Below the pieces are notes generated by a model, which searched no databases, was not told the origin of the DNA, and saw nothing but the letters and a program-made list of their open reading frames with translations. Below, piece after piece: positions 230-40,069 of a DNA stretch of 64,000 bases; within the stretch, counting starts at the first letter, position 1; each line of letters begins with the position of its first letter. Both the position numbers and the translations under genes were made by a program. This DNA is from Octopus vulgaris (Eukaryota): positions 155,434,001 to 155,498,000 of the forward strand of contig OX597815.1 of the NCBI GenBank assembly GCA_951406725.2, given 5' to 3'.

Positions 230-1220
230 CAAATTTTAATAAAGATGGGTGTATGGAAAATTAAAAAAAAAAAAATAATAAATCATACCGATTTTCATTG
301 CAAAGCAAATTTTCAAGATTTGTAAGTGGAAAAGAATTTTTTTTTAATTGAGAAAGGGGAAAAAAAAGAAATTTACAATGTTTTTTTTAAAAAAAATAAT
401 AATACATATATACAAAAATTAATAAATAAGTATACCAATACATTGTAGAGTCTTTATGCTTTTAGAGTTCAATAATAGTCCTTGGAAAAACTTCTTTGAA
501 GGATTAGGATCCTTGTGTTTAAATGTAGTGCTTAGTTTAAAGCGTTGGGTGAATGTGTGTCAAAACAGGAAATGGGATAAGAGTTATCCAGTTCCTGTGA
601 GTAAGGGGAGACAATTCTGTGGATTTTATGCTCTTTAATTAGAAAGATGGATTTTTGTCAAACAGGATGCTTATATCAATTTTTTGTCAGATAGGATGCT
701 AGAAAAAGGAGTATGGTCATCGTGGAGTTTGCATATTAAGATGCGTTTGGAATTTTTCAATAAAAAGATTCTCCTTGTTGATTCTTTCTTGTGTAGAGAT
801 TCCGTCTTTACATTGGTAGAAAGGGAATATGTGAAATTTGGGATTTTTATCTCTAGCGCAAGAGTCTATGTGGCTACTTAGTGGAATTTGACGGTATTGT
901 GGGAGATTTATCTGTTCTTTATGAACCGCTACTCTTCTTCGTTTGTCCAACATAATTGTGTTGGCAACCGGCGCATGTGAGAACGTAGATGAGGTTCTCA
1001 GAGGAACAGGAGATTTTAAACTTTGTTCCTTGTTTGAAAGTATATTCAGAGCCTTCAAGTAGGAAGGGGCAGGTACCACAGTTATGGCCTGCACAATTTT
1101 TAACTGATGGGGGTGGATGTAGTGTCTGAAGTTTGGCATTTGTTAAGAGTTTTTTCAAAGATTTATGTTGCCTTTTGCATTTAAGGATTTTATGTGTATT
1201 GATAATATTATTCATTTTTA
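230..1220 (-). mobile_element. Penelope-like element 3' remnant (GIY-YIG endonuclease) with degenerate 3' HHR
   Basis: ORF 919..1215 reads C..C..CP...FKISCSSENLIYVLTCAGCQHNYVGQT, and the next frame gives R.AVHKEQI...RINKENLFIEKFQ. A decayed HHR-like motif lies at ~280-321. Confidence 0.85.
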
Positions 1221-1674
1221 TTCAGACCCAAAAACATTGGTGGCGCAGAGAGGGGAAGCCGGTATGCATGGACGACTGCTGGTCTTCCATAAACAACCTT
1301 GCCCGGACTTGTGCCTCGGAGGGTAACCTTCTAGGTGCAATCCCATGGTCAGTTATGACCGAAGGGGGTCTCAGCATATATATATATATATATATATGCA
1401 CACAAGCATGTGCGTGTGCATGCATGTGTGTGCATATGTATGTGTGTTTGTGCCACCTCGTCTTAATATTGTATGACAATTATAAACATGTGTTATTATC
1501 GTGCAAGCAGTGTCATTCATTTTCAATCTTTCATGAAAACATGTCTGATCATGGAGAAATATTATCTTGCTTAGAAACAAGTGACAGCCGGCAACAAAAA
1601 CAGCATCTGGCTGCATTATAATTTGTCTCAATTAATACCACTAACCCATGCAAGCATGGAAAAGTGAACATTAA

Positions 1675-10480: not shown

Positions 10481-12741
10481 TGTCTGTGTTTGTCCCCCCC
10501 AACATCGCTTGACAACCGAGGCTGGTGTGTTTACGTCCCCGTAACTTAGTGGTTCGGCAAAAGATACTGATGCAATAAGTACTAGGCTTACAAAGAATAA
10601 GTCCTGGGGTCGATTTGCTCAACTAAAGGTGGTGTTCCTGCATGGCCACAGTCAAATGACTGAAACAAGTAAAAGTAAAAGAGTATATAATGTGGTTGGC
10701 ATTTGGAAGGGCATCCAGTTATACAAACCATGCCAAAGCTGACCTCGCCTGTGTGAGTGCCACATGAAAAGCACTCAGCCCACTCTGCTGGGTGGTTGGA
10801 ATCAGGAAGGGCATCAACCCATAAAAACCATGCCAAAATAGACACTGAAGCAAGGTGCAGGCACCTGCCTGACCAGCTCCTGTCAAACCATACATGGAAG
10901 GAGGACATTAAATGATGATGGTTCTAATGCGCTTAGCTTAGATCTTCCTTGGGGCTGGCCAGATTGGAGCAATCTCAAGATTAATCAGCCAAAATTGCAA
11001 GGATGATCCAGTTCTTGACTGAAGATTGAAGGCTTCGAACGTCCCGTCCGTGTTTTTTGTATCGTCTTCTAAATGTTTTGCGTTCTTGTCCCAGTTTGTA
11101 TTTTTTTTACACACACATATATATACATATATATATATATAATATATATATATACATATATATAGTCAGTAAATCATAAATTCGAAAAAGCAGGGCTGAC
11201 CCAATAGTCCAGCCATATCTATCTATCTGTATATAATTTCCTAGATGTTACTTTAGACCTGGGCTCTAAAGCATACAGGCCCTATCACAAGTCAAACAAG
11301 AAGCTGTCTTATGTTAACACACCCTCCTGCCACCCCTTATAATCATCAAGAACCTAGTGAAGGGTGTAAGCAAGAGGACCTTGAATCTATCATTTAGCCA
11401 AAATATCTTCAACACCACTACCCACTACAGCAAAGAGGGTTTAAGGACTGCATCTCTGCATGCCAGGCCCTAACACCCAGAAAAGGAAGTGCTGCAAAAA
11501 GATCATTTGGTTTGCCCCACCCTTCTCACTTAACATCAAGACTTGTGTAAGAAGGATTTTCCTTAGATTAATGGATAAGCATTTTACACACACACACATA
11601 GATATACAGGCATTTATTTTACAGGCACAACCTAGGATTCTCCTTTAGTTGTGCACCTAACATAAAAAGCATTTTAACAAGCACCCACAAAACAAGAGAG
11701 GAGGCCGATGAGAGGCTGAAGGAGTCATCTGTGAAGCTACAGTGACACCTAGATCTGGTATCTGCATTACCAGCAATATACCATCTAACAGCAACAGTAG
11801 CAGATTAACTAGCTCTTATACCAGTACAATCGCCACAGCCAGAGATGATGACCAGTCCAGGATCAACAACACAGAGCAGGTAACTGATGACACTAGAACC
11901 ACCATCACAGATGATGAAGAGACTGGTCCTGCACCATACGTTACCACCAGCCACAGCTACACTAACACCAGCAGCATCATTGCCAACCATATGACCAGAA
12001 ATGATAACCACGGAGATAACACTTCTGGATCATTGCATCATAACAACATCAGCAATGGTGTTACCAACAACATCACCACATCCAAAGACTAACAGAGATA
12101 TACCAGGAGTGCAAATATAGCCACCTCCCAAGTTTCTAAATATATCTGATCAACCAGTACATCTTTCATACAACACTTCTGCAACCACCAGTCATCCTTC
12201 AGAGTCCTAGAAAGACGTTTTATCACATCCCTAGTCAGCCATATATGGCACCTCAAAAATCAAGAGACCTCATGTGATATCAGGTGGAAAATAATAGAAC
12301 ATCAAGGTGGGAGTGGCCGTTACAAAATCTGCATCACAGAGAGAACCAAAATTCTTAAGGACTATGCTAAAGCTGGTGCATTAAATAGTTGTAAAGAAAT
12401 TTGTTCTAAACCTGTTCATTTCAGGTGCTACTTACTGGAAAACTGGACCTCTCCATTTTGCTGGTTAAGCTTTTAAGAGTTTGTAAAGGGCTTTTAGCCT
12501 CTTGTCCAGGGGAGATAACTCGTCCTCTTAAACGTTTTTATATATCTTAGCTGTTAAATCTCATTATCCTAGTGTTTTGTCATGTCTGTAAGATTAGAAA
12601 CTTAAATTTTGTCTTTGAACAGAGTCTGATGAGCTGTCCACAAGGCTGTGAAACCATTGGTAACACTACGACCAGAACTTAACTTTTTGTTTGTTTGACA
12701 GAGAGAGACAGACAGAGATAGAGAGAGAAAGAGAGAGAGAG

Positions 12742-15700: not shown

Positions 15701-18700
15701 AAACTGAAAGGTTTTTGTTAGGTTTTCTTCTTTTAGCTGAAATAGGAGAAGAGTGCTGATACCATTTTTTTTTGGCCCCAGTGGAAGGAACGAAGATGAT
15801 AAGATGGATAAAATTTTACCTCACGGCGGATGTTCGAAATTTCGAATAAATCTCCAATTGAATGTCCAACATCCTGGAGAGTTTGAGACATCTTCTTCTT
15901 CTTGGCTGGGCCATTATCCATGACCGCCTGCAGAGATAAAAAACATAAAAGTGGAGTAACTTTCAAAGTGTTGAAGGGTAAAAAATAGAGAAAACAAAGC
16001 AGTAACTATTGAATCAGAAAATGTGTTTCTTTCAATACAATGTAAAGCTTTTATAAAAGCAAGACATGGTTGCCCAGACTGATTTCAGTATCTTACATGT
16101 ACTTCTTTTATTTGAGCAGGGAGCAATTAAAAGTAAAAGTAAATTGAAGTCAAAATTAAACATCCAAAGAAGGTGGCAACAACCAGGTAGAGCCGAGAGG
16201 TTTTTTTGGGGGATTTTCACTGATCTTTACAATTTGTATCGCCATGTTATATCATTAACTTGATACAACTTGTCTAATTAGAGCCATTTTATACTATCTT
16301 ATATAACTAAGACAAGCTAGGTGACAAGTGTACATAACTTGAAGAGAAGCGAAATGCAGGTTTGTTAGTGTTCTGCAATGAGAGTAACTGGAGTGGAAAG
16401 TATTTTGGATTGTGAAGCAGTATGTCAAGGCAAATCTAGATGTAGTTGGGAAATAGCACACTTAACCTTACTAATGCTGATGAAGAAGAGGATTTAAAAT
16501 GTTATAAGAAACTGTGGCATGCAGAAAATATAAGTGAGGGAAAAATGAAAATACTGCTAAGAGTACTTACAGAAGGATTAGCAATTGAATCGGACAGCTT
16601 TATGGTTAAAATGGCCATAAAGGATATGCTTGGGTTGACATAAATATATTTATTTAAAACCTAATATATCTTGACTTCAACATTTAAGTTTGATATGTCA
16701 AAATATTTTCGTCGCTATAAGACCGCGAACTGTTCACTGACAAAAATCCGTGCTGTTGCACGGATTTTTGTCAGTGAACAGGTCACAGTCTTATAGCGAC
16801 GAAAATATTTTGACATATTAAATTTAAATGTTGAAGTGAATCGAATGGCTTTTGTGTGTTTCTTAAATGGCTTACAAACACCTTCCACACTGCAATTGTT
16901 TTTGTTTCAGCACACGATCTCAGATCAAACCACTTGCTATGCAAATACATCTCCCTAATATATCTTAAAGCTAAAGAAAAATCACATTTAACTTACAGTG
17001 TAATCAGGTCCCATGGCTAGTATAGCATGGCCTGTGAGGGTAGCAATTGTGAAAATATGAGCATTTTTCACACCTTTAGCCTGTACAGAGAAAGAAATAG
17101 AAACACATTTAAGCAACAATTATTCACACATTTAAATAACAAAATAGTTAGCCACACATTTTGAATATATTTTGATATATAGTATAAGACGCTAGGCACA
17201 TACATGACCTGGAATAGACACTATTTCTCGTTTTGCAGTTTGATGCATTGGTGTAAAGATGTCTGCTTGGCTCAAAATGTAATCATGCACCATAGAACTG
17301 ACCAGGAGAGAAACGTGGACTTATCAATTCAAATAGAGCAATGTAAAGGAATGGTCTCAAACTTGATGATGGTCATACAAAGGACATTGTCACTGGAAAC
17401 TGAAGGGGCTTCAAATGAAACAGTAAAGCTGATGTCATGAATGAAAATCACTTCTCCCTTGATAGAACCAGTCATAATGATGGCTTCAATCACATAGAGC
17501 ATAAGAGCTTTGATTATAGCTTTGTACCATTATAGAGTTTGGGGGCATCCAAATTTCATAATGTGCGTGCTCCTACTTTCAGTTGCTGATTGTGAGGTTA
17601 AATGCTTGTGGGTTGAAAAGAACTGAGAACTTATATTGGATAGCAAACATCATTCATCATATCAATTACATTTCGAACTCAATTGTACTATCAACCAGGC
17701 AAGTATCTGTTAAACGACAGTGACATGAATATCCTTCACAATATCATTTTTGGGAGCCGGGACACCACATTGACAAAGCCACTTGTGTTTATTATAATTC
17801 TGTGAGAGGATAGGAAACTTTCAGTAGCATTTCTTCAGATGTGTCAATGACTGATCAACAATATCTCGGTATTTTGACATCTCATGGTTCAGTGGTTAGA
17901 GTGTCAGACTATTAGTCATGAAGTTGTTGGTTCGATTCCCAGACCAGGCAGTGTGTTCTTGAGCAAGACACTTTATTTCATGTTGCTCCAGTTCACCCAA
18001 CTGTAGAAATGAGTTGCAATGTCACTGGTACCAAGCTGTATCAGTCTATGCCTTTCTCTTGGACAACATCAGTGGCATGGAAAGGGGAGGCTGGTATGCA
18101 TGGGTGACTGTTGGTCTTCCATAAACAACCCTGCCCAGACTTGTGCACCTTCTAGGTGCAATCCCATGGTCATTTGTGACTGAAGGGATTCTTTAACCTT
18201 TTGACATTTCTACTGACTTAATAATATGTTATAGTTCCTGAGTGTTCTAATTTCATTTTGTGGTATCACAAGTTCCTTCAGGAAAGGCATGACAATCCCT
18301 TTCATAAACATCATACTTTCAAGAACAACACATTTAAAACCATCATACATCTTAATCTTTTTGACACCAGACCACCACTGGTTCTATGATACAAAACTGT
18401 ACTTTCATGGTAACACTATATAACACAAGGCCAAAAGAGCAATTTCCTTTCCTTTTTTCATTAATTTTCTTTTTTTAAGCTTATAAACATTTCAGCCCTA
18501 AACAAGTGATCTTATTATAAATGATGCAAGCTCAATCAACACAAAACAATTACAGATTTGGAGCTATGCTCTCAATATGTTCACCAGCATTCTGGTCTAC
18601 AATCAAAACAAGAATAATTACATACCTGTTCTTTCATGTAACACAACAAATCAGCCATCACCATTCTTCCTTCGGCATCAGTGTTACCAACACGAACCCG

Positions 18701-24700: not shown

Positions 24701-27700
24701 TTTACTCTGGTAGGAGCTCTCTGAACTTTAGCCAAGCTATTCTTATTCTTGCAGCTACACTCTCAGAGCATCCACCCCCAATACTGACTTGGTCACCTAG
24801 GTAACAGAAGCTATCAACTACTTCTAGTTTTTCCCCCTGGCAAACAAACCGTTTTCTGCACATTTTCAGTGTTTATTGCCACTGAGCATTCGCCACACAC
24901 AAAAACTATCTTCCCAGTTTGCCTTCCTTTGATATTGCTGCATCTTTTATGTGTGTCCATAGCTTACACTGGGTACATCTTACGGAGTTTCTACTTACGC
25001 CATTTCTATAGATCGAGCAGGGCCATCTACCTCAAGGGATTTGTGATTTGTCTGCTTTCCTACTTATTAAGACAACCTTGCAAGGCCAAGACAACAAAGC
25101 ACACACACGGTGTGTGTGTGCACGCGCGTATATATATTGGGTTGTCTGAAAAGTTCGTACCAATTTATAGCAGCTTACCTTTCGACTTATTTTAGAACAT
25201 GGTGGAGTCCATAAAATAGTATTTGAGTACACCTCAATTTAGAGCACAGTTTAAGCTATCATTTCATGGAAGAAGAATTATGTTCCTATAACCAGTGTTA
25301 ATTCTGTAACCTTTTGACCTGCTATAGACTGTTGCCAAATTATGTTAAATTCAGACGGAGGACTTAAGAAAAAGAGAAGGATACACTGGATGATGTTTAC
25401 ACTATTTGTATAATAAAAGAAATAGTGGGGAGAGAGAAATATTCATCACTCTCAAGGGTGAAGATCTCTCCGCGTCCCACCCCCTCTCTCTTTTATTATA
25501 CAAGTAGTGTATCAAGAACTACATCATCCAATGTATTCTCTTTATCTTAAGCCCTTGGTCTGAATTTGACATAATTTGGCAACCGTTTACAGCAGGTCAA
25601 GCAACTACGAAGTGGTGCCTTCTATATTTTAATGGTTTTACTCTTTTACTTGTTTCAGTCATTTGACTGCGGCCATACTGGAGCACCGCCATTAGTCAAG
25701 CAAATCGACCCCAGGATTTATTCTTTGTAAGCCAAATACTTATTCTATCGGTCTCAAACACACCAGCATCGGTTGTCAAGCGATGTTGGGGGGGGGGGGG
25801 AACAAACACAGACACACAAACATACACACACACACACGCACACATACATATAACCCAAGGTTCCACACAGTGGAACTGAACCCGAAACCAAATGGTTGGT
25901 AAGCAAGCTACTTACCACACGGCCACTACTATGCCTATAAAACTTAAAACAGACAAAATACAGTTAAGCATTTCACCTGGCGTGCTAACGTTTCTGCCAG
26001 CTCGCCGCCGGTTTATTAAAATATTTGGGAGAAATATTAAACTTTGACCCAACCAGCAATGGAAGACCAGTCAAAGTAAAATACTAAAAATAAACGTAAA
26101 TAACATCAATATAAATTCACACAAACACACAAAGTGTGTGTTTATGTGTATTTATATTGATGTTATTTACGTTTATTTACGTGAGGAAAAGAAAATATTT
26201 GTGTAAGGGAAACAACTCTTACAAGCTATTATCTAAACGTACTGGATATATTGACTTGATATATTGAGTTCAGAGGTAAATGAAATTAAACGATAGTCTT
26301 AAAAACTAAATTAAGAGACCAGACAGCCTGATTATCACATAACAAGGCAATCTTGTGCCAGAGAGAAGGCTAAGCTCTTCAAAAACAAATTTCCTTGTCT
26401 AAATATCAATGGTATTCAGGTTAATTTCAGGTTAAACGAATCTTTTCGGTTTGAACGGCAGTTTTTTCTAGTGGTGTCATATGAAATTGACACCCATAAT
26501 TATGACCCTAGTATCGATCTATTGCATTTCAATCTGTTTTAGGGTTAGAGGTGGGGACAAGGGTATCTTTTTTTCTGCATAAATGTAAATAAACCCAATC
26601 TGTTTCTTAAATGAGGGACATATTCATACGGCACAGAATGTTTTCACCCGAATAGACGTCATTGATTGGTTGAAATTGCAGAAATTGAAGAAAAAAATAA
26701 CATATCTTACAAACCATAGAATTTTCTCTATAAAGCCAAGAGAAAAAGATGTTTTATAAACACATTCTACCAGTATACGAAGTTTAAAAGTGTTTAGTTA
26801 CGTAGAAATTATTTTAAAAAACTGCCGGTCAAACCGAAAAGATCCGTTTAAACTAATCACTCAAGGTGGTTAAACTAATCAACTATTAAAGCTTATTTGT
26901 AAAATAAGAATTCCAATGTAAAGCTCTACTTACTTCTAGTTGCTCTGTTAACAGCTCCAAGGAGTGGATAGCTCTTCTCAAGTTCACCAACATTTGACTG
27001 GACAGTTATCTAGAATATACAGAAAACATATTCATTGGATGAACTGTAAGCAAAGAACTTCATTAAAATTGAGTTACTGTTGATTAATGCATAATTTTAT
27101 TAAATTTTCACAACAAAATAAGAGTTCTTTATGTTTTTATACATCATAACCGAGTTTATTGAAATATTTAAGCTAGGGAAATGTAGAAGTTTGAGTTTGA
27201 TCACAGAAGTACTTGTTTCTAAATGAAGGTAATATTTTCCCATGAATGGACTTAGCAACATTGAAAATTAGAAATGAATGACATTTCTTCCATTTTGGCA
27301 ACACTTGTTTACAGCTACCTTGCAAGGCCAACACAACAAGACACACACATGGGGGACATATATATTGGGTTGTCCGGAAAGTTTGTGCCGATTTATAGTA
27401 GCTTACCTTTTGACTTATTTTAGAATATGGTTGAGTCCATAAAATAGGATTTGACTACACCTCAATTTAGAGCACAGCTTAAGCTATCATTTCGTAGAAG
27501 AATTATGTTCCTATAACCTGTGTTAATTCTGTAACCCTTTAAAATGGATGATAAGAAAGTTCATCTTCGGTGCTTGATGCTTTGGGAACCAGACAAAAAT
27601 TGCTGCAGCTCAGCTGGGATGTGTTACCCCATCCTCCATATTCACCAGATATTGCTCCTTCAGATTTCCACTTATTCAGGTTTCTGCAGAATAGTCTTAA

Positions 27701-28451
27701 TGGTAAAAAATTCAATTCTTTGGATGATGTAAAAAGATACCTTGATGAATTCTTTACTAGGAAACCACTTCAATTCTGGGAAGAGGGTATTTTCAAGTTA
27801 AAGGAAAGATGGAGACGCATTGTGCAACAAAATGGCTCATATTTGATTGATTAAAAATGTAATGGCAAGTATTTATTAACCTTTTTCTTACCTTTAAAAA
27901 TCGGCACAAACTTTCCAGACAACCCAATATATATCTATATAGATACATTGAGAGACTAATAACCTGGTGTAGAACTCAATATATGCATGTTTCAGAACGA
28001 TGTTTTAGACAAGTGTAGAGCAGTAATAAAATGAAATGACAAAGGAATAAATGATTATCTTACAAACTTCATTAGCTTACAGCCATTTCTGCTTTAAGAT
28101 ATTGCACTTCATATTCAAGGCTCTGATGATACTATAAGGTATTACTGAGTCCACTGCATCTTTCATAGAGAAAACAGTTGCAAACTAATGAAATACGTAT
28201 GATAATCATTTATTTCTTTGCCACCTCATTTTCTTACATACACACATGCATGGCTATCTACATATTTCCAGGTTCAAGTCCCACAGTAACACCACATGCT
28301 GTTGGCAATTTCTTTTCCTTCTTTGGACTTTTCCTTTTCGATGAAGGGTTATGGTCGAAATGTCAAACTCTCCTTTTTCAGAGCATCAAGCTAACACACT
28401 CCTTGTGCACACCTTTTTGTTATCCATTAATTTTATTCATTTATCTGAATT

Positions 28452-34500: not shown

Positions 34501-37341
34501 CTAAATAGTCTACATGATTTATGTTCAAACTGACCAGATGTGGCATCTCACATCTACCCCACTATGTCATTCTAAAAATATGCAACCACATTATTGGAAT
34601 TTATAAGCTACAAGATAATGCACGTTTAATTTTTTTTTAAATTTGAATAAACAAGCATTGAATTAGATGGAGTAATCTGAATGCTAAAGGGTTAAGACAA
34701 AGAACATTTAAAAAATAGAAATCCAACAAGGAATGTTTCATTCAGTGAAAATCAATTAGTCATGGATTCATTGATTTCAGCAGGTACGGGAGACAACTCT
34801 CGTCATCTTAATATGACCTTGTCAGGAAAGGTAGATTGATTCACAAGGTCAGGACATCGGGAAAAAAAATACCTGGTGATATTTGTTCAAGCACTGGAAT
34901 TGATTTGATTAGTTAATCCCTTCTCCCAAAATTTTTGGCCTTGTGCCTAAATTAGAAATTAAAAGTGGCAAGCTGGAAAAATCATTAGGTTGTCAGGAAA
35001 AACATCTTGCAGTAAAGATATATTTGAAGTTCAAATCTACCAAGATCAACTTTGCCTGTTATCCATCCAGAATCGAAGTAGGAGCACAAGAAGCAATATA
35101 ACTGACTAATCCCCTCCCTTCAAAATTGCTGGTTTTGTTCTTAATATAAAAATTAAATTATAACCTCATCAGTGAAGCATTGTTTTCACTATGCTAATAG
35201 CTAAAGTAGTACTGAGAGAATCCAAATAATGGAAGTTGATTGACACAAAACTAGAATTGTTTAGAAAACAAATTGTTCAGAAGACATACATCATCTCGAA
35301 AGAGTCCAGAAGCTGGCTACCCGCATGGTTCTTGGTCTCAAGCATTTGTCTTATGAAGAAAGGCTGAAGACGCTCGACCTTTGTTCTCTAGAAAAACGAC
35401 GACACCGTGGTGATCTCATTCTTGCTCACAACATCATAAGCGGAAAGTGTAACCTCTCGGAAGAGCTGTTCTTCACTCCTGCTCCAGAGCGTCAGCTGCA
35501 GGGTCACTCCGAAAAGCTCTATCTGCAACGATTTCATCTCAATCGAAGGAGAGGGGCTTTCTCCATCCGGGTTGCGGATCCATGGAAGAAGCTGCCGGAC
35601 AAATGCCAACAACCGCTCGGTTCAAAGTCTCCCTTGACCAGAAATGGTCTGAACTCTTTGCATGAACACCACCCTGTACATAACTCCATGTCCCCCTACA
35701 TGGCCTTGCTTTTTGCTTTTTGAACCAAAAAATTAACTTAACTTAACTTAACTTAACAAATTACTTTGTGTCATTTCTTACATTGACACAACACTACATC
35801 TGCATACAAGGGATGCTGAAAAGTTCTTGGCTTTGGGTAAAAAAAATACAAGAGAATTGGTTAATTATTTTATTCAATATATTCCCCTCTCAGATTAACA
35901 CACTTACTGCAGCAGTCCTTCAGTTTTTCTAAGCCCTGTAAAAGAACTCGGAAGGTTGGGCCTCCAACCAGGCTTTTCACAATAGCCTTAAAACCAGGAA
36001 CTTTTCAGCAACGCTCATAGGAGGAGTACAGTCAATGTGAAGTCATATGGCCAAGTGGTTAGAGTGTTGCACTCACAATCACAAGATTATGGTTTCAATT
36101 CCAGGACTGGATAAAGAACTGTGTTCTTGAGTAAAACACGTAATTTCAAATTATTCTGGTCCATTCAGCTTTAAACAAGTAACCCTGCAAAGAACCAGCA
36201 GTCCATTGAGAGAAAATATTGTGATCTTGGTCAACTACACTCTTGGAGTGGTTGGCGTTAAGAAGGGCATCCAGCTGTAGAAACTCTGCCAGATCAAGAT
36301 TGGAGCCTGGTGCAGCCATCTGGTTCGCCAGCCCTCAATCAAAATCGTCCAACCTATGCTAGCATGGAAAGCGGACATTAAACGATGATGATGATGGTAA
36401 CTTGCACAACATGGAAACCAGATGACTGGGCCATATGAGTCTCAACACTAAAATGTCCTAGAGTTGATGGTGATAATATATAGTCAATTAGATCAATACA
36501 ATTATTTGATTAGTCTTTATTTTATTAAGTCTGGAAGGCTTGATCACAAAACTGACCCTGGTATGATTTGAACTTGCAACATAAAGGGGCATGACTAAAT
36601 ACTGCAAAGCATTATATGGGATACTACCAATTCTGCTTTTCCCCTGCCCTACAAAATAATAAAAAAATTTTACTTTTTGATGCCTTTTTCTGCTGCGTCA
36701 CTCCATCTCCTCACATCATCATAATCTCTATTAATGGGACCAGTTGGACTCCAGATCTAAACAAGTAAACATTTTAGAAAATATCACAGGTAAATAGACA
36801 TCAGAATAATCAAACCAATTACAAAACTACAATTAGCAGTAATTATAACAGCAAGAAAAATGACAACTTACCAAACGTTTTGATGGTAAGGCACTGCAAT
36901 GAAGAACTGTCAATTCTTTCAGGTCTCCAACCTGCAAAAATACAAAAATTAACATTTTATTCTTTTATTTGTTTCAGTCATTTGACTGCGGCCATGCTGG
37001 AGCACTGCCTTTAGTCGAGCAAATCGACCCCCAGGACTTGTTCTTTGTAAGACTAATACTTATTCTATTGGTCTCTTTTGCCGAACCACTAAGTTACAGG
37101 GACGTAAACACACCAGCATCAGTTGTCAAGCGATGTTGGGGGGACAAATACAGACACACACACTGACCGCATGTGTACTGTTGGCGATTTTTTTTCCTCC
37201 GTCTTCCCTTCTTTGGATCTTTCCTTTTCCTATGTTTCTGACGAAGAGCTCCGCTCGAAATGTTAAACCCTCCTTCTTTTCTTAGCGTCCAATAATACTA
37301 TACTTGTTCCACGTCCTCGCGTTGTGTTTTCATGTTTGGAT

Positions 37342-37380
<39 letters not shown>

Positions 37381-40069
37381 CCATGTGGTTGGGAAGCAAG
37401 CTACTTACCACACAGCCACTCCTGCGCCTCATTAAAAATATAATTCTTCAAACAAAAATTAAAGAAAAAAAACCATGTCGGGTTGCTTTTACGCTAACAA
37501 AAATTAGATGGGACTAGAAAGCAAGTTTCCATGTGCTTCAATTTTTTTTTATTAGTTAGAGGTAGTCATGGCTGGAATGTCGTTTGATCACAAGATTTGC
37601 TTGGTCACAACAACGGCTGAACATGTCAAAGATTAGCATTTCGTTCAGTGTGTCGCAATCTTTACATTTACAGTGTCTTGATTTGCTATGAACGAATGCT
37701 CTTCAATTCGAATCTATCACAAACTATAACATTATGGGCCAGATATTTCTTTTAGCATGGAACCAGGACTAACAGTGTAATTTCTCAGATTTGGAACCTT
37801 CTCTAACCTACACCACTTTAAATGAAATCAGGACTATATCAAAGTAACATAGCACACCTATATTAACACACATATATATATTTCACCCCCTCTTTATGTG
37901 TGTGCATGCACACGGGCATATATAAACAGAAAAGTGGATACTTTTTGGTATTTTTCTCCATTACACTTCTTTCATTTGCTAATAGGAATTACAAAGATTT
38001 ACATGTTTATATGGATATATAAGAAACAGCCAAAATTATTTTGAGTTAAAAGTAATTTGAAGGATTATAACTTACTTGGCTGTATTCAGTCAAGGTCTCT
38101 TTCAAACTCGAAAAACCAGGATTGCCGTCAAGATTTTTTATGCAGTTTGTCACAAGTACAACACAATCAAATCTTGAATCAGCCACATCACTTGTGGCCA
38201 AGAGTTCAGGAGTTAATCTGAAAAGTAAAAAAAATGCAAACAGATTTTTAAATTTTCATATTAAAAGTGAGAAAATAAAATAGAGGTCAATAGGGCAATA
38301 GCTGATATTGAAATAATCTAAGACATTATATTCCTAAGGGAATGGTTGTGAATAGCACCAGCATAAACTAGGTTACAGAGACAATATTTAGGTTATCTTT
38401 ATAAAAGATATCTAAAACAGATGAACTTTGCAAAGATCCTCTTTATCCAAATAGTATGACTAGAGTACTATGTACAAACATGACTCAATTATACAGCACT
38501 CTCTCTCTCTACTTTAACAAATGAGATCTTTTCAGCCCAAGGATCAGACATGATTATATGACTTTGGGACAGATTCTAATACAAAGCACTTGGGCAAGTA
38601 TTTTTTATAAAAGCCTTGGATGAATCAAGGTGGAATTTAGTAGACTAACTAGAAGGAAAAAATAAATGAAACACAATCAGCAGGACTATTCCAAGTTTTT
38701 GGTGGCAGACTTAAAACCTCATCCAGTTTTTTATCACCACCTTTCCCTCATGTCCTTAGGAAAGTCCCATCAGTTAGAAGCATTCAGACAAAGTCTCCAA
38801 TCTGAGGATAACTTCACTCAACCATCTTAGAAACCACAGGAAAAGGTCATGAACACTGCAATTCTTCTGAATACACCATTTAAAACTTACTATTTACAGT
38901 TAGGTTGACTGGGCCATTTGGAAGTTAATTGCTTTCTCTGACAACTCAGTTCTGGCAGTAACAAAATGCAACTATTGCACCTCTTAGAGCTGGTTTTAAA
39001 ATAAAAATTGGCACCTGGTCCTTCTTTTGATTAGTCATATACCCAATGAAAACAACAGGCTCTGCTCTTTTTTTTCTTTCTTTTTTTTTGTCTTTTTTTA
39101 ATATTTCAAAATCACTTTAGCAGTTGAAATATTACATTTCTAAATCTCTAAGAGAGATTTATACAGTAGCAGCATGATAAAGTGATGGTATGTTGCCAAC
39201 TTAATGTGGCAATCCCATGAAAAGGAAGAATGTTACTGCTATTTAGCCCTAGGAAACATCGTTTCCATTTGATCATGACACATTTTCTGTGTCCTTATGT
39301 TTTCAAAGGGAAGATAAGCATCTCCACCCAGCAAGACCAGAAACCAGAGACTAGTTTCAGAGTCATTGCTCATCATCAGTCTGGAGTAGCATGGCTTGCT
39401 AGCTGTTGATGCTTATTCACCTATGTAAACATATAGATTTCAAGTGAAATACATTCACTGATTTCAAAAATAGAAGTATTACACATTCTTTGCATTATTT
39501 ACATTTGACGGATATTTGTCCTCATCTTGTTAGTTGCTAACACAACGTTTCAACTAGTATACACTCTAGCCTTCATCAGGTGTCATGGGGAAATTTCAAA
39601 CCTGGGTTCTCATTCCTAAGGTATTTTTCTATATTATTATTGTTGTTATTATTATTATTATTATTCAAGTCACTGCCTGGAATCGAACTCAGAATCATGG
39701 GGTTAGTAGCCTGCACTCTTAACCACTATGCCATAAGCCCACGGGCATATGGCGTAGTGGTTAAGAACACGGGCTACTAACTCAAGATTCCAAGTTTGAT
39801 TCTAGGCAGTGACCTGAATAATAATAATATCAAAAATACCTTAGGAATGAGAACCCAGGTTTGAAATTTCCTCAAGACACCTAATGATGGCTGGAGGGTA
39901 TACCAGCCAAAACGTGTTAACAACTAACAAGATGAGGACAAATATCCGTCAAATGTAAATAGTGCAAATAATGTACATGATTCCTCGTCACTTAAATATA
40001 GAACAGAAATATCTATCTACCAAGAAAGTCAGTCAGTCTCTCTCTCTCTCTCTCACATATCTATTTACA

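Follow-up and report, generated by a model that had tools for sequence, protein, structure and literature searches.

The general state of the hammerhead core is C3-G8. Minimal type I hammerheads have already been published from the pseudo-LTRs (pLTRs) of Penelope-like elements (PLEs), where they form opposite-strand pairs and include a U3-A8 covariation (Cervera and de la Pena 2014, PMC4209133). In mutational studies, only C3G/G8C among the double changes in the CUGA region gave rescue when all pairs were scanned (PMC9901934), G8C alone caused a 10^5-fold loss (PMC8495972), and G3-C8 worked less well with C17 (PMC3884650). The C3G/G8C change also partly rescued the hammerhead of the Penelope element PAc, which needs its protein in order to cut; insertion in vitro was unimpaired in hammerhead mutants (PMC11167929). 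The background given in the initial annotation of the present locus, that a double swap at positions 3 and 8 partly rescues activity, agrees with these reports (PMC9901934, PMC11167929). In the portions of the literature searched, which also covered PMC6466107, PMC6155905, PMC6765202, PMC11014351 and bioRxiv 2026.07.22.740005, we found only engineered cases of G3-C8 and no natural one; Lunse et al. (2017), on small PLE hammerhead variants, lay outside this search and might hold examples.

Here we describe a locus at which G3-C8 is the natural core. The reading we favour, and which the sequence patterns make reasonably probable, is that of a decayed Neptune-like terminal-repeat insertion from a lineage that carries the G3-C8 core throughout, in which the family ribozyme would still cut weakly and the copy at this locus would be inactive.

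The insertion and its hammerhead motifs

The window (the whole stretch of DNA analysed, 64,000 nt) contains a 281-bp insertion (16673-16953) bounded by identical 13-bp direct repeats (Table 1). Its inverted arms (16671-16753 and 16758-16840) form an 83-bp inverted repeat with a 4-nt loop, in which 77/83 positions match, and both the fold-back and the 13-bp target-site duplication (TSD) proposed in the initial annotation are thereby upheld. In organism D, 16661 and 16956 are joined on one contig; this is the empty site with one repeat copy, which the annotation had wished to see verified. Contigs from organisms A, B and C continue into the element. The insertion is a clipped, decayed terminal-repeat end of a Penelope element, consisting of the hammerhead and the first 29 codons; it is one decayed insertion among thousands. 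The target site is AT-rich and intronic.

Table 1. Coordinates of the insertion, its hammerhead motifs and the surrounding host gene (window positions)
Feature	Position	Strand	Basis or remark
Left TSD, 13 bp	16660..16672	.	single copy at empty site of organism D
Inverted short arm of element end (element positions about 7-91)	16673..16753	-	
Minimal type I hammerhead, left arm; G3 (16737) - C8 (16732)	16696..16742	-	descriptor; folding
Head-to-head junction of the two arms, 4-nt loop	16754..16757	.	
Direct arm: 3' end of Penelope-like terminal repeat (element positions 9-204)	16758..16953	+	
Minimal type I hammerhead, right arm; G3 (16774) - C8 (16779)	16769..16815	+	descriptor; folding
First 29 codons of element RT-endonuclease ORF (MAYKHLPH...)	16867..16953	+	translation; L294, L296 continue into ORF
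'Tail' of ~55 nt between internal end (~16896-16901) and full end	inside 16867..16953	+	
Right TSD, 13 bp	16954..16966	.	
Host intron holding the insertion	15927-16996	-	splice joint in contigs of 3/4 probable-RNA runs
Flanking exons of probable M17 leucyl aminopeptidase gene	16997-17084 and 15819-15926	-	

A relaxed hammerhead descriptor was run over both strands of the window and returned four matches. Two are the arms, with core GTGAACA; the third, at 39579, is canonical, and the fourth has an unpaired 3/8 core. Both arms carry a 5-bp stem I (TGTCA/TGACA), an extra G after A9, GAAA, the palindrome AATATT and U17, so that the core, stem I, GAAA, palindrome and spacing first read from the letters were recovered on both arms. 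The literal core C3 U4 G5 A6 N7 G8 A9 is not the one found, the motif having G3 and C8; a Watson-Crick 3/8 pair is present together with the remaining core (U4 G5 A6 A9 G12 A13 A14 A15.1 U16.1 H17). Stem II, which the first reading had placed on both arms, is intact in the family and in neither arm of the window copy: two G>A CpG changes leave 3 bp in the right arm, and the left arm carries G10.1>U. The predicted cuts lie at 16701/16700 in the left arm and at 16810/16811, after U17, in the right arm; the window copy's hammerhead is predicted to be inactive.

In family copies, stems I and II constitute the lowest-energy fold, with correct spacing around the junction. The palindromic minimal stem III AAUAUU is present, as in dimerising minimal motifs, and in cofold prediction AAUAUU dimer pairing was not preferred over strand-swapped stems. 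An Rfam scan of the window gave 47 matches at E<=1, with no hammerhead family among them, and the canonical minimal motif at 39579 was likewise without an Rfam hammerhead match (E<=1). This second minimal hammerhead (39535-39584, minus strand) has a canonical core and a palindromic AACGTT stem III, and lies in an inverted arrangement in a different repeat family. Four further remnants, judged by eye to be mobile-element-like, occur in the window at 717-1221 (-), 12150-12476 (+), 27555-27854 (+) and 35265-35723 (+), and resemble two GIY-YIG-like ends, a mariner-like transposase and a LINE-like end.

The G3-C8 core across the genome and its origin

We searched the 2.8-Gb genome with exact patterns, leaving positions 3 and 8 free for the window copy's subfamily; most patterns fixed the remaining core letters, which the protein-anchored loci carry too. 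The results showed that G3-C8 is the family state over three subfamilies, which differ mainly in loop II and together gave 4,882 exact matches. In the window copy's subfamily, 903 of the 991 exact matches had G3 and C8 and none had C3 and G8, while 25 were without G3 (18 A, 4 T, 3 C) and 64 without C8 (42 G, 18 T, 4 A). The older subfamily gave 1,988 matches, with G3-C8 in 89 of the first 100 listed, and the youngest had C8 in 1,853 of 1,903. Still older relatives (N7 = C or U, with other loop II and stem III) are also G3-C8: the 32 old matches obtained with positions 3 and 8 free comprised 21 G-C, 5 C-G, 2 A-C, 3 G-T and 1 G-A, with 0 G-G and 0 C-C. GTGAACA is thus the family consensus, as the initial annotation had supposed, and stems I-III are kept in it. 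Its statement that CUGA-based searches cannot see the motif was equally sound, since searches anchored on CUGA miss thousands of G3-C8 motifs in this one genome.

Copies with a G3.G8 mismatch made up 42/991 (4.2%) of the window subfamily and 27/1,903 (1.4%) of the youngest, against a background of 0.33% for this transversion, measured at 39 other sites. Such copies (L045-L084) recur in all three subfamilies at 4-13x the background transversion rate and sit on several allele backgrounds; few of them, as of other position-8 variants, lie on the largest contigs.

The genome also contains two sister families whose stems, tail and ORF (about 45% amino-acid identity) are homologous and whose core is C3-G8. 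One is old, with 290 matches to a pattern fixing C3 and G8, and the other is young and was found by protein search. We built a tree on flanking sequence after deletion of the 7 core letters (74 rows, with 3 excluded for short length and 1 unmatched). It placed 18 rows, all canonical, apart from the 56 of the G3-C8 lineage (split 100/100). Of its four state changes, one is basal and the other three are isolated C3-G8 copies within the older subfamily. An ancestral subfamily represented by these three copies was ruled out, as they are single tips inside the older subfamily; only 2 of 33 C3 copies have G8, in line with chance double changes. Judged by this core-free tree, the swap is one old compensatory event on the branch parting the lineage from its canonical sister, G3-C8 being taken as derived because C3-G8 is the general state.

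Comparison of the old relatives with the youngest subfamily shows 32 of 138 majority states altered and the swap kept; G3-C8 stayed through successive subfamilies in which loop II, N7 and stem III changed. In old copies, 5 of 52 cells at positions 3 and 8 are variant, compared with roughly 0.17-0.24 beside them (p 0.10 to 0.007, rough). Because the swap is a single event, the covariation has n=1. The initial annotation had taken the swap to be compensatory and had concluded from it that an active ribozyme was under selection. The first part stands, as a true compensatory swap relative to the homologous C3-G8 sister; the second is weakened by the single event, by the over-representation of G3.G8 and by the amplification of a sister family with A9C. 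From the sequence patterns as a whole, selection for cutting appears likely.

Proposed formation of the fold-back and possible activity of the ribozyme

We compared 70 distinct two-armed insertions (duplicates removed) from L001-L342, a non-random set of loci chosen by several patterns. One full end was combined with one end about 55 nt inside in 52/70 fold-backs, two full ends were present in 1/70, and in 16/70 a TSD of 8-15 bp lay outside microsatellites. The pairing of a full with an internal end matches the tail signature reported for PAc, where it stems from two RT start sites. Penelope-like insertions ordinarily have such an inverted structure, the window copy being atypical for its short left arm. 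The fold-back cannot supply a hammerhead dimer because its arms lie on opposite strands. One fold-back insertion, with identical junction and flank, was observed at five places (L118, L128, L129, L131, L137), apparently carried within another repeat.

In the window subfamily, the arms differed at the loop II A/T site in 8/27 insertions (0.30), compared with 2.8% at invariant sites (p 5e-7) and 49% between insertions. This frequent difference at a family polymorphism suggests two RNA templates for roughly half of the insertions. Both arms could instead derive from one RNA, by fold-back or twin priming, with arm differences added by later ectopic gene conversion, and we hold this to be a serious possibility, if the less probable one. 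The window copy is consistent with one template, since its arms share A>T at element position 67, and the overall discordance lies below the fully independent value of 0.49; however, the discordance far exceeds that at invariant sites and was also present in insertions not picked for G8 (L005, L019, L044, L166). A literature search on twin priming in Penelope returned nothing relevant. One insertion (L109) combined a C3-G8 arm with a G3-C8 arm. Arm-to-arm differences of this kind offer a genomic handle on the making of inverted Penelope insertions.

The RT-endonuclease would nick both strands and prime two cDNAs, one from the full end of the RNA and the second from a point about 55 nt further in; the two cDNAs, often from different RNA molecules, would join at their far ends. 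At the present locus, the end of the element RNA (hammerhead, then ORF start) was copied into the AT-rich intron site as two head-to-head arms flanked by the 13-bp TSD.

Regarding cleavage, 38 copies started exactly at the predicted cut, compared with 11, 11 and 15 at three control positions; a control at element position 64 was discarded, being swamped by an older subfamily that carries a 2-nt insertion. Microhomology in stem I explains the joins of 17/38, and the remaining 21 represented a weak excess (p about 0.03, from rough expectations made before the last of the three controls was added). U17 was present in 22/26 old copies of the G3-C8 lineage, and C17 in 20/23 scored copies of the old canonical family (7/30 unscored), an association that fits weakly with the C17 effect described in PMC3884650. 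In the young canonical sister family, C occupied position 9 in 2,969 of 3,242 exact matches, an uncompensated A9C, and the first 100 non-C position-9 matches listed were 69 A and 31 T. This family (L257-L260, e.g. G000:C15:42992000-43001000) has intact 1,312-aa ORFs, and its older members keep A9.

The A9C burst, the G3.G8 excess and insertion in vitro without cutting make a strict need for cutting doubtful. The motif may have been kept as a structure, that is, as a protein-binding, folding or RNA-dimer element for which cutting is no longer needed, with G3-C8 reached by way of tolerated mismatches and maintained only loosely; we consider this rather unlikely. The same A9C and G3.G8 observations speak for it, together with G8 in both arms of 4/15 insertions, a G3.G8 5' repeat in the long copy L300, the dispensability of cutting for insertion in vitro (PMC11167929) and the near absence of copies that begin at the cut site. 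However, an exact Watson-Crick complement at two non-adjacent positions, with the other core unchanged, would be expected if the active fold were needed, and both the persistence of G3-C8 while 32/138 neighbouring majority states changed and the lack of G-G and C-C among the 32 old matches argue against a purely structural role.

Weak retained activity of the family ribozyme is, on this evidence, fairly probable. G3-C8 would restore the tertiary pair that positions nucleotide 8, and the family RNA would cut after U17 either when dimerised through AAUAUU or when assisted by protein. Such cutting would be slow and confined to a minority of molecules, most inserted copies coming from uncut RNA. 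A bolder proposal, which we regard as improbable, is an active or recently active Penelope lineage in which G3-C8 cuts in vivo and inverted insertions arise from two RNAs, one per nick, held together as a hammerhead dimer; if it were true, the ribozyme's main job would be the pairing of two templates, and this would account for the tolerance of core changes such as A9C in sister families. Because three cores, canonical, G3-C8 and A9C, occur in related young Penelope families with intact ORFs in this one genome, whether Penelope hammerheads need to cut is a directly testable question.

Parent element, host intron and comparison with described systems

Longer copies run upstream through a microsatellite-rich UTR of about 1-1.4 kb into an ORF. 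A protein search of the genome returned many young open frames, and 14 of the 20 fetched belong to the G3-C8 family; by the descriptor, the G3-C8 motif lies about 1 kb downstream of the ORF in 11/14 of these loci, the rest being cut short or altered there. The open frame of one locus (L243) spans 1,025 codons and contains YVDD, a CxxxCxxC linker (CQSNCAVC) and GIY-YIG (PF01541, 25.4 bits vs the Pfam cut-off of 22.6). The Pfam search of this ORF gave no RT domain match, YVDD being seen directly, and there was no Pfam match for 6 decayed family B frames, 3 family A fragments or the 1,312-aa sister ORF. A homologue (P0001) was nearest to HTH_animal/GIY-YIG clusters. In L294 and L296, the 209-nt unit continues into the ORF start as a 5' repeat, and the pLTR with its hammerhead was found on both sides of the ORF, the 5' side in L296 and L300. 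Because this unit enters the ORF start and 16867-16953 encodes the first 29 codons, the window, as judged from sequence, holds the end of a Penelope pseudo-LTR. By its predicted domains, the element is an autonomous EN+ PLE with a single ORF encoding RT and, at its C terminus, GIY-YIG. Many flanks of family copies are (TA)n, and the CX2-5CxxC linker and (TA)n targets fit a Neptune-like assignment, the clade being judged by descriptions of the Neptune group. The initial annotation was right about the motif and the fold-back and missed this autonomous Penelope-like parent.

It is very improbable that the 209-nt unit is a self-contained non-autonomous element (a SINE or tandem retrozyme): most arms do begin within the first 20 nt of the unit (102/140) and one 30-copy tandem array is known, but longer copies reach the ORF upstream, through the UTR, and the ORF start downstream, and the array unit is without the tail and includes host DNA. 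A non-autonomous element or retrozyme had been our first reading and was dropped once longer copies led into the ORF; an open frame spanning the unit, spotted by eye, was in the wrong frame relative to the element ORF. Non-LTR retrozymes are defined by non-coding tandem hammerhead units, and the copies found here are dispersed ends of a coding element. The 30-copy array (L031, G000:C2:17908101-17912953) has a 166-bp unit composed of the tail-less element end and about 19 nt of host target DNA; every unit carries the G3-C8 motif on one strand and, if transcribed, would provide a natural dimer-cleavage substrate.

The host gene is probably an M17 aminopeptidase, the exon adjoining the intron giving a Peptidase_M17 match at E 0.0055, under the curated cut-off. 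The probable-RNA runs are assembled contigs that show splice joints and not RNA ends. The donor at 16996 lies 43 nt from the element end and the left (minus) arm is sense in the host pre-mRNA, the intron being on the minus strand, both as the initial annotation had stated. That the window copy cuts or regulates this pre-mRNA, as such placement would favour, is extremely improbable: cleavage is unlikely because the sense arm is locked in a hairpin (predicted 98% paired with the opposite arm, -149.6 kcal/mol), its stem II is decayed (G10.1>U) and no second sense copy lies near to form a dimer, and normal splicing of the intron in 3 runs and the absence of the insertion from organism D also speak against it.

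The family thus adds natural phylogenetic support for the 3-8 tertiary pair, in a form otherwise found, in the sources seen, only as an engineered rescue. Natural 3-8 covariation is shared with the core variants of Perreault et al. (2011, PMC3088659); those are U3-A8 in bacterial and phage motifs, with no G3-C8 in the sections available. The PLE motifs of PMC4209133 resemble the present ones in the 4-5 bp stem I, the extra nucleotide between 9 and 10.1, G10.1-C11.1, the palindromic minimal stem III, the terminal-repeat location and the prevalence of copies that are solo or close together on opposite strands. They differ in having C3-G8 or U3-A8, whereas the core here is G3-C8 (two transversions), which did not appear in the available part of that paper.

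The Neptune/Nematis EN+ PLEs (Craig et al. 2021, PMC8557442) share the RT, the Zn-finger-like linker and the C-terminal GIY-YIG, as well as an inverted 5'-truncated copy, a tail at one end and microsatellite targets; the likeness to this clade is by description only, and the core variant is not described in the portion consulted. In Poseidon PAc of Anolis (Frangieh et al. 2024, PMC11167929), the hammerhead likewise adjoins the ORF start, two RT start sites give a tail, with the first end about 85-90 nt past the cut, and both strands are nicked and extended, which is here proposed from insertion structure. The tail is about 55 nt here compared with 30-40 nt in PAc, and the CxxC linker and (TA)n bias point instead to a Neptune-like clade. 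G3-C8, a partly active laboratory mutant in PAc, is the natural state in the family described here.
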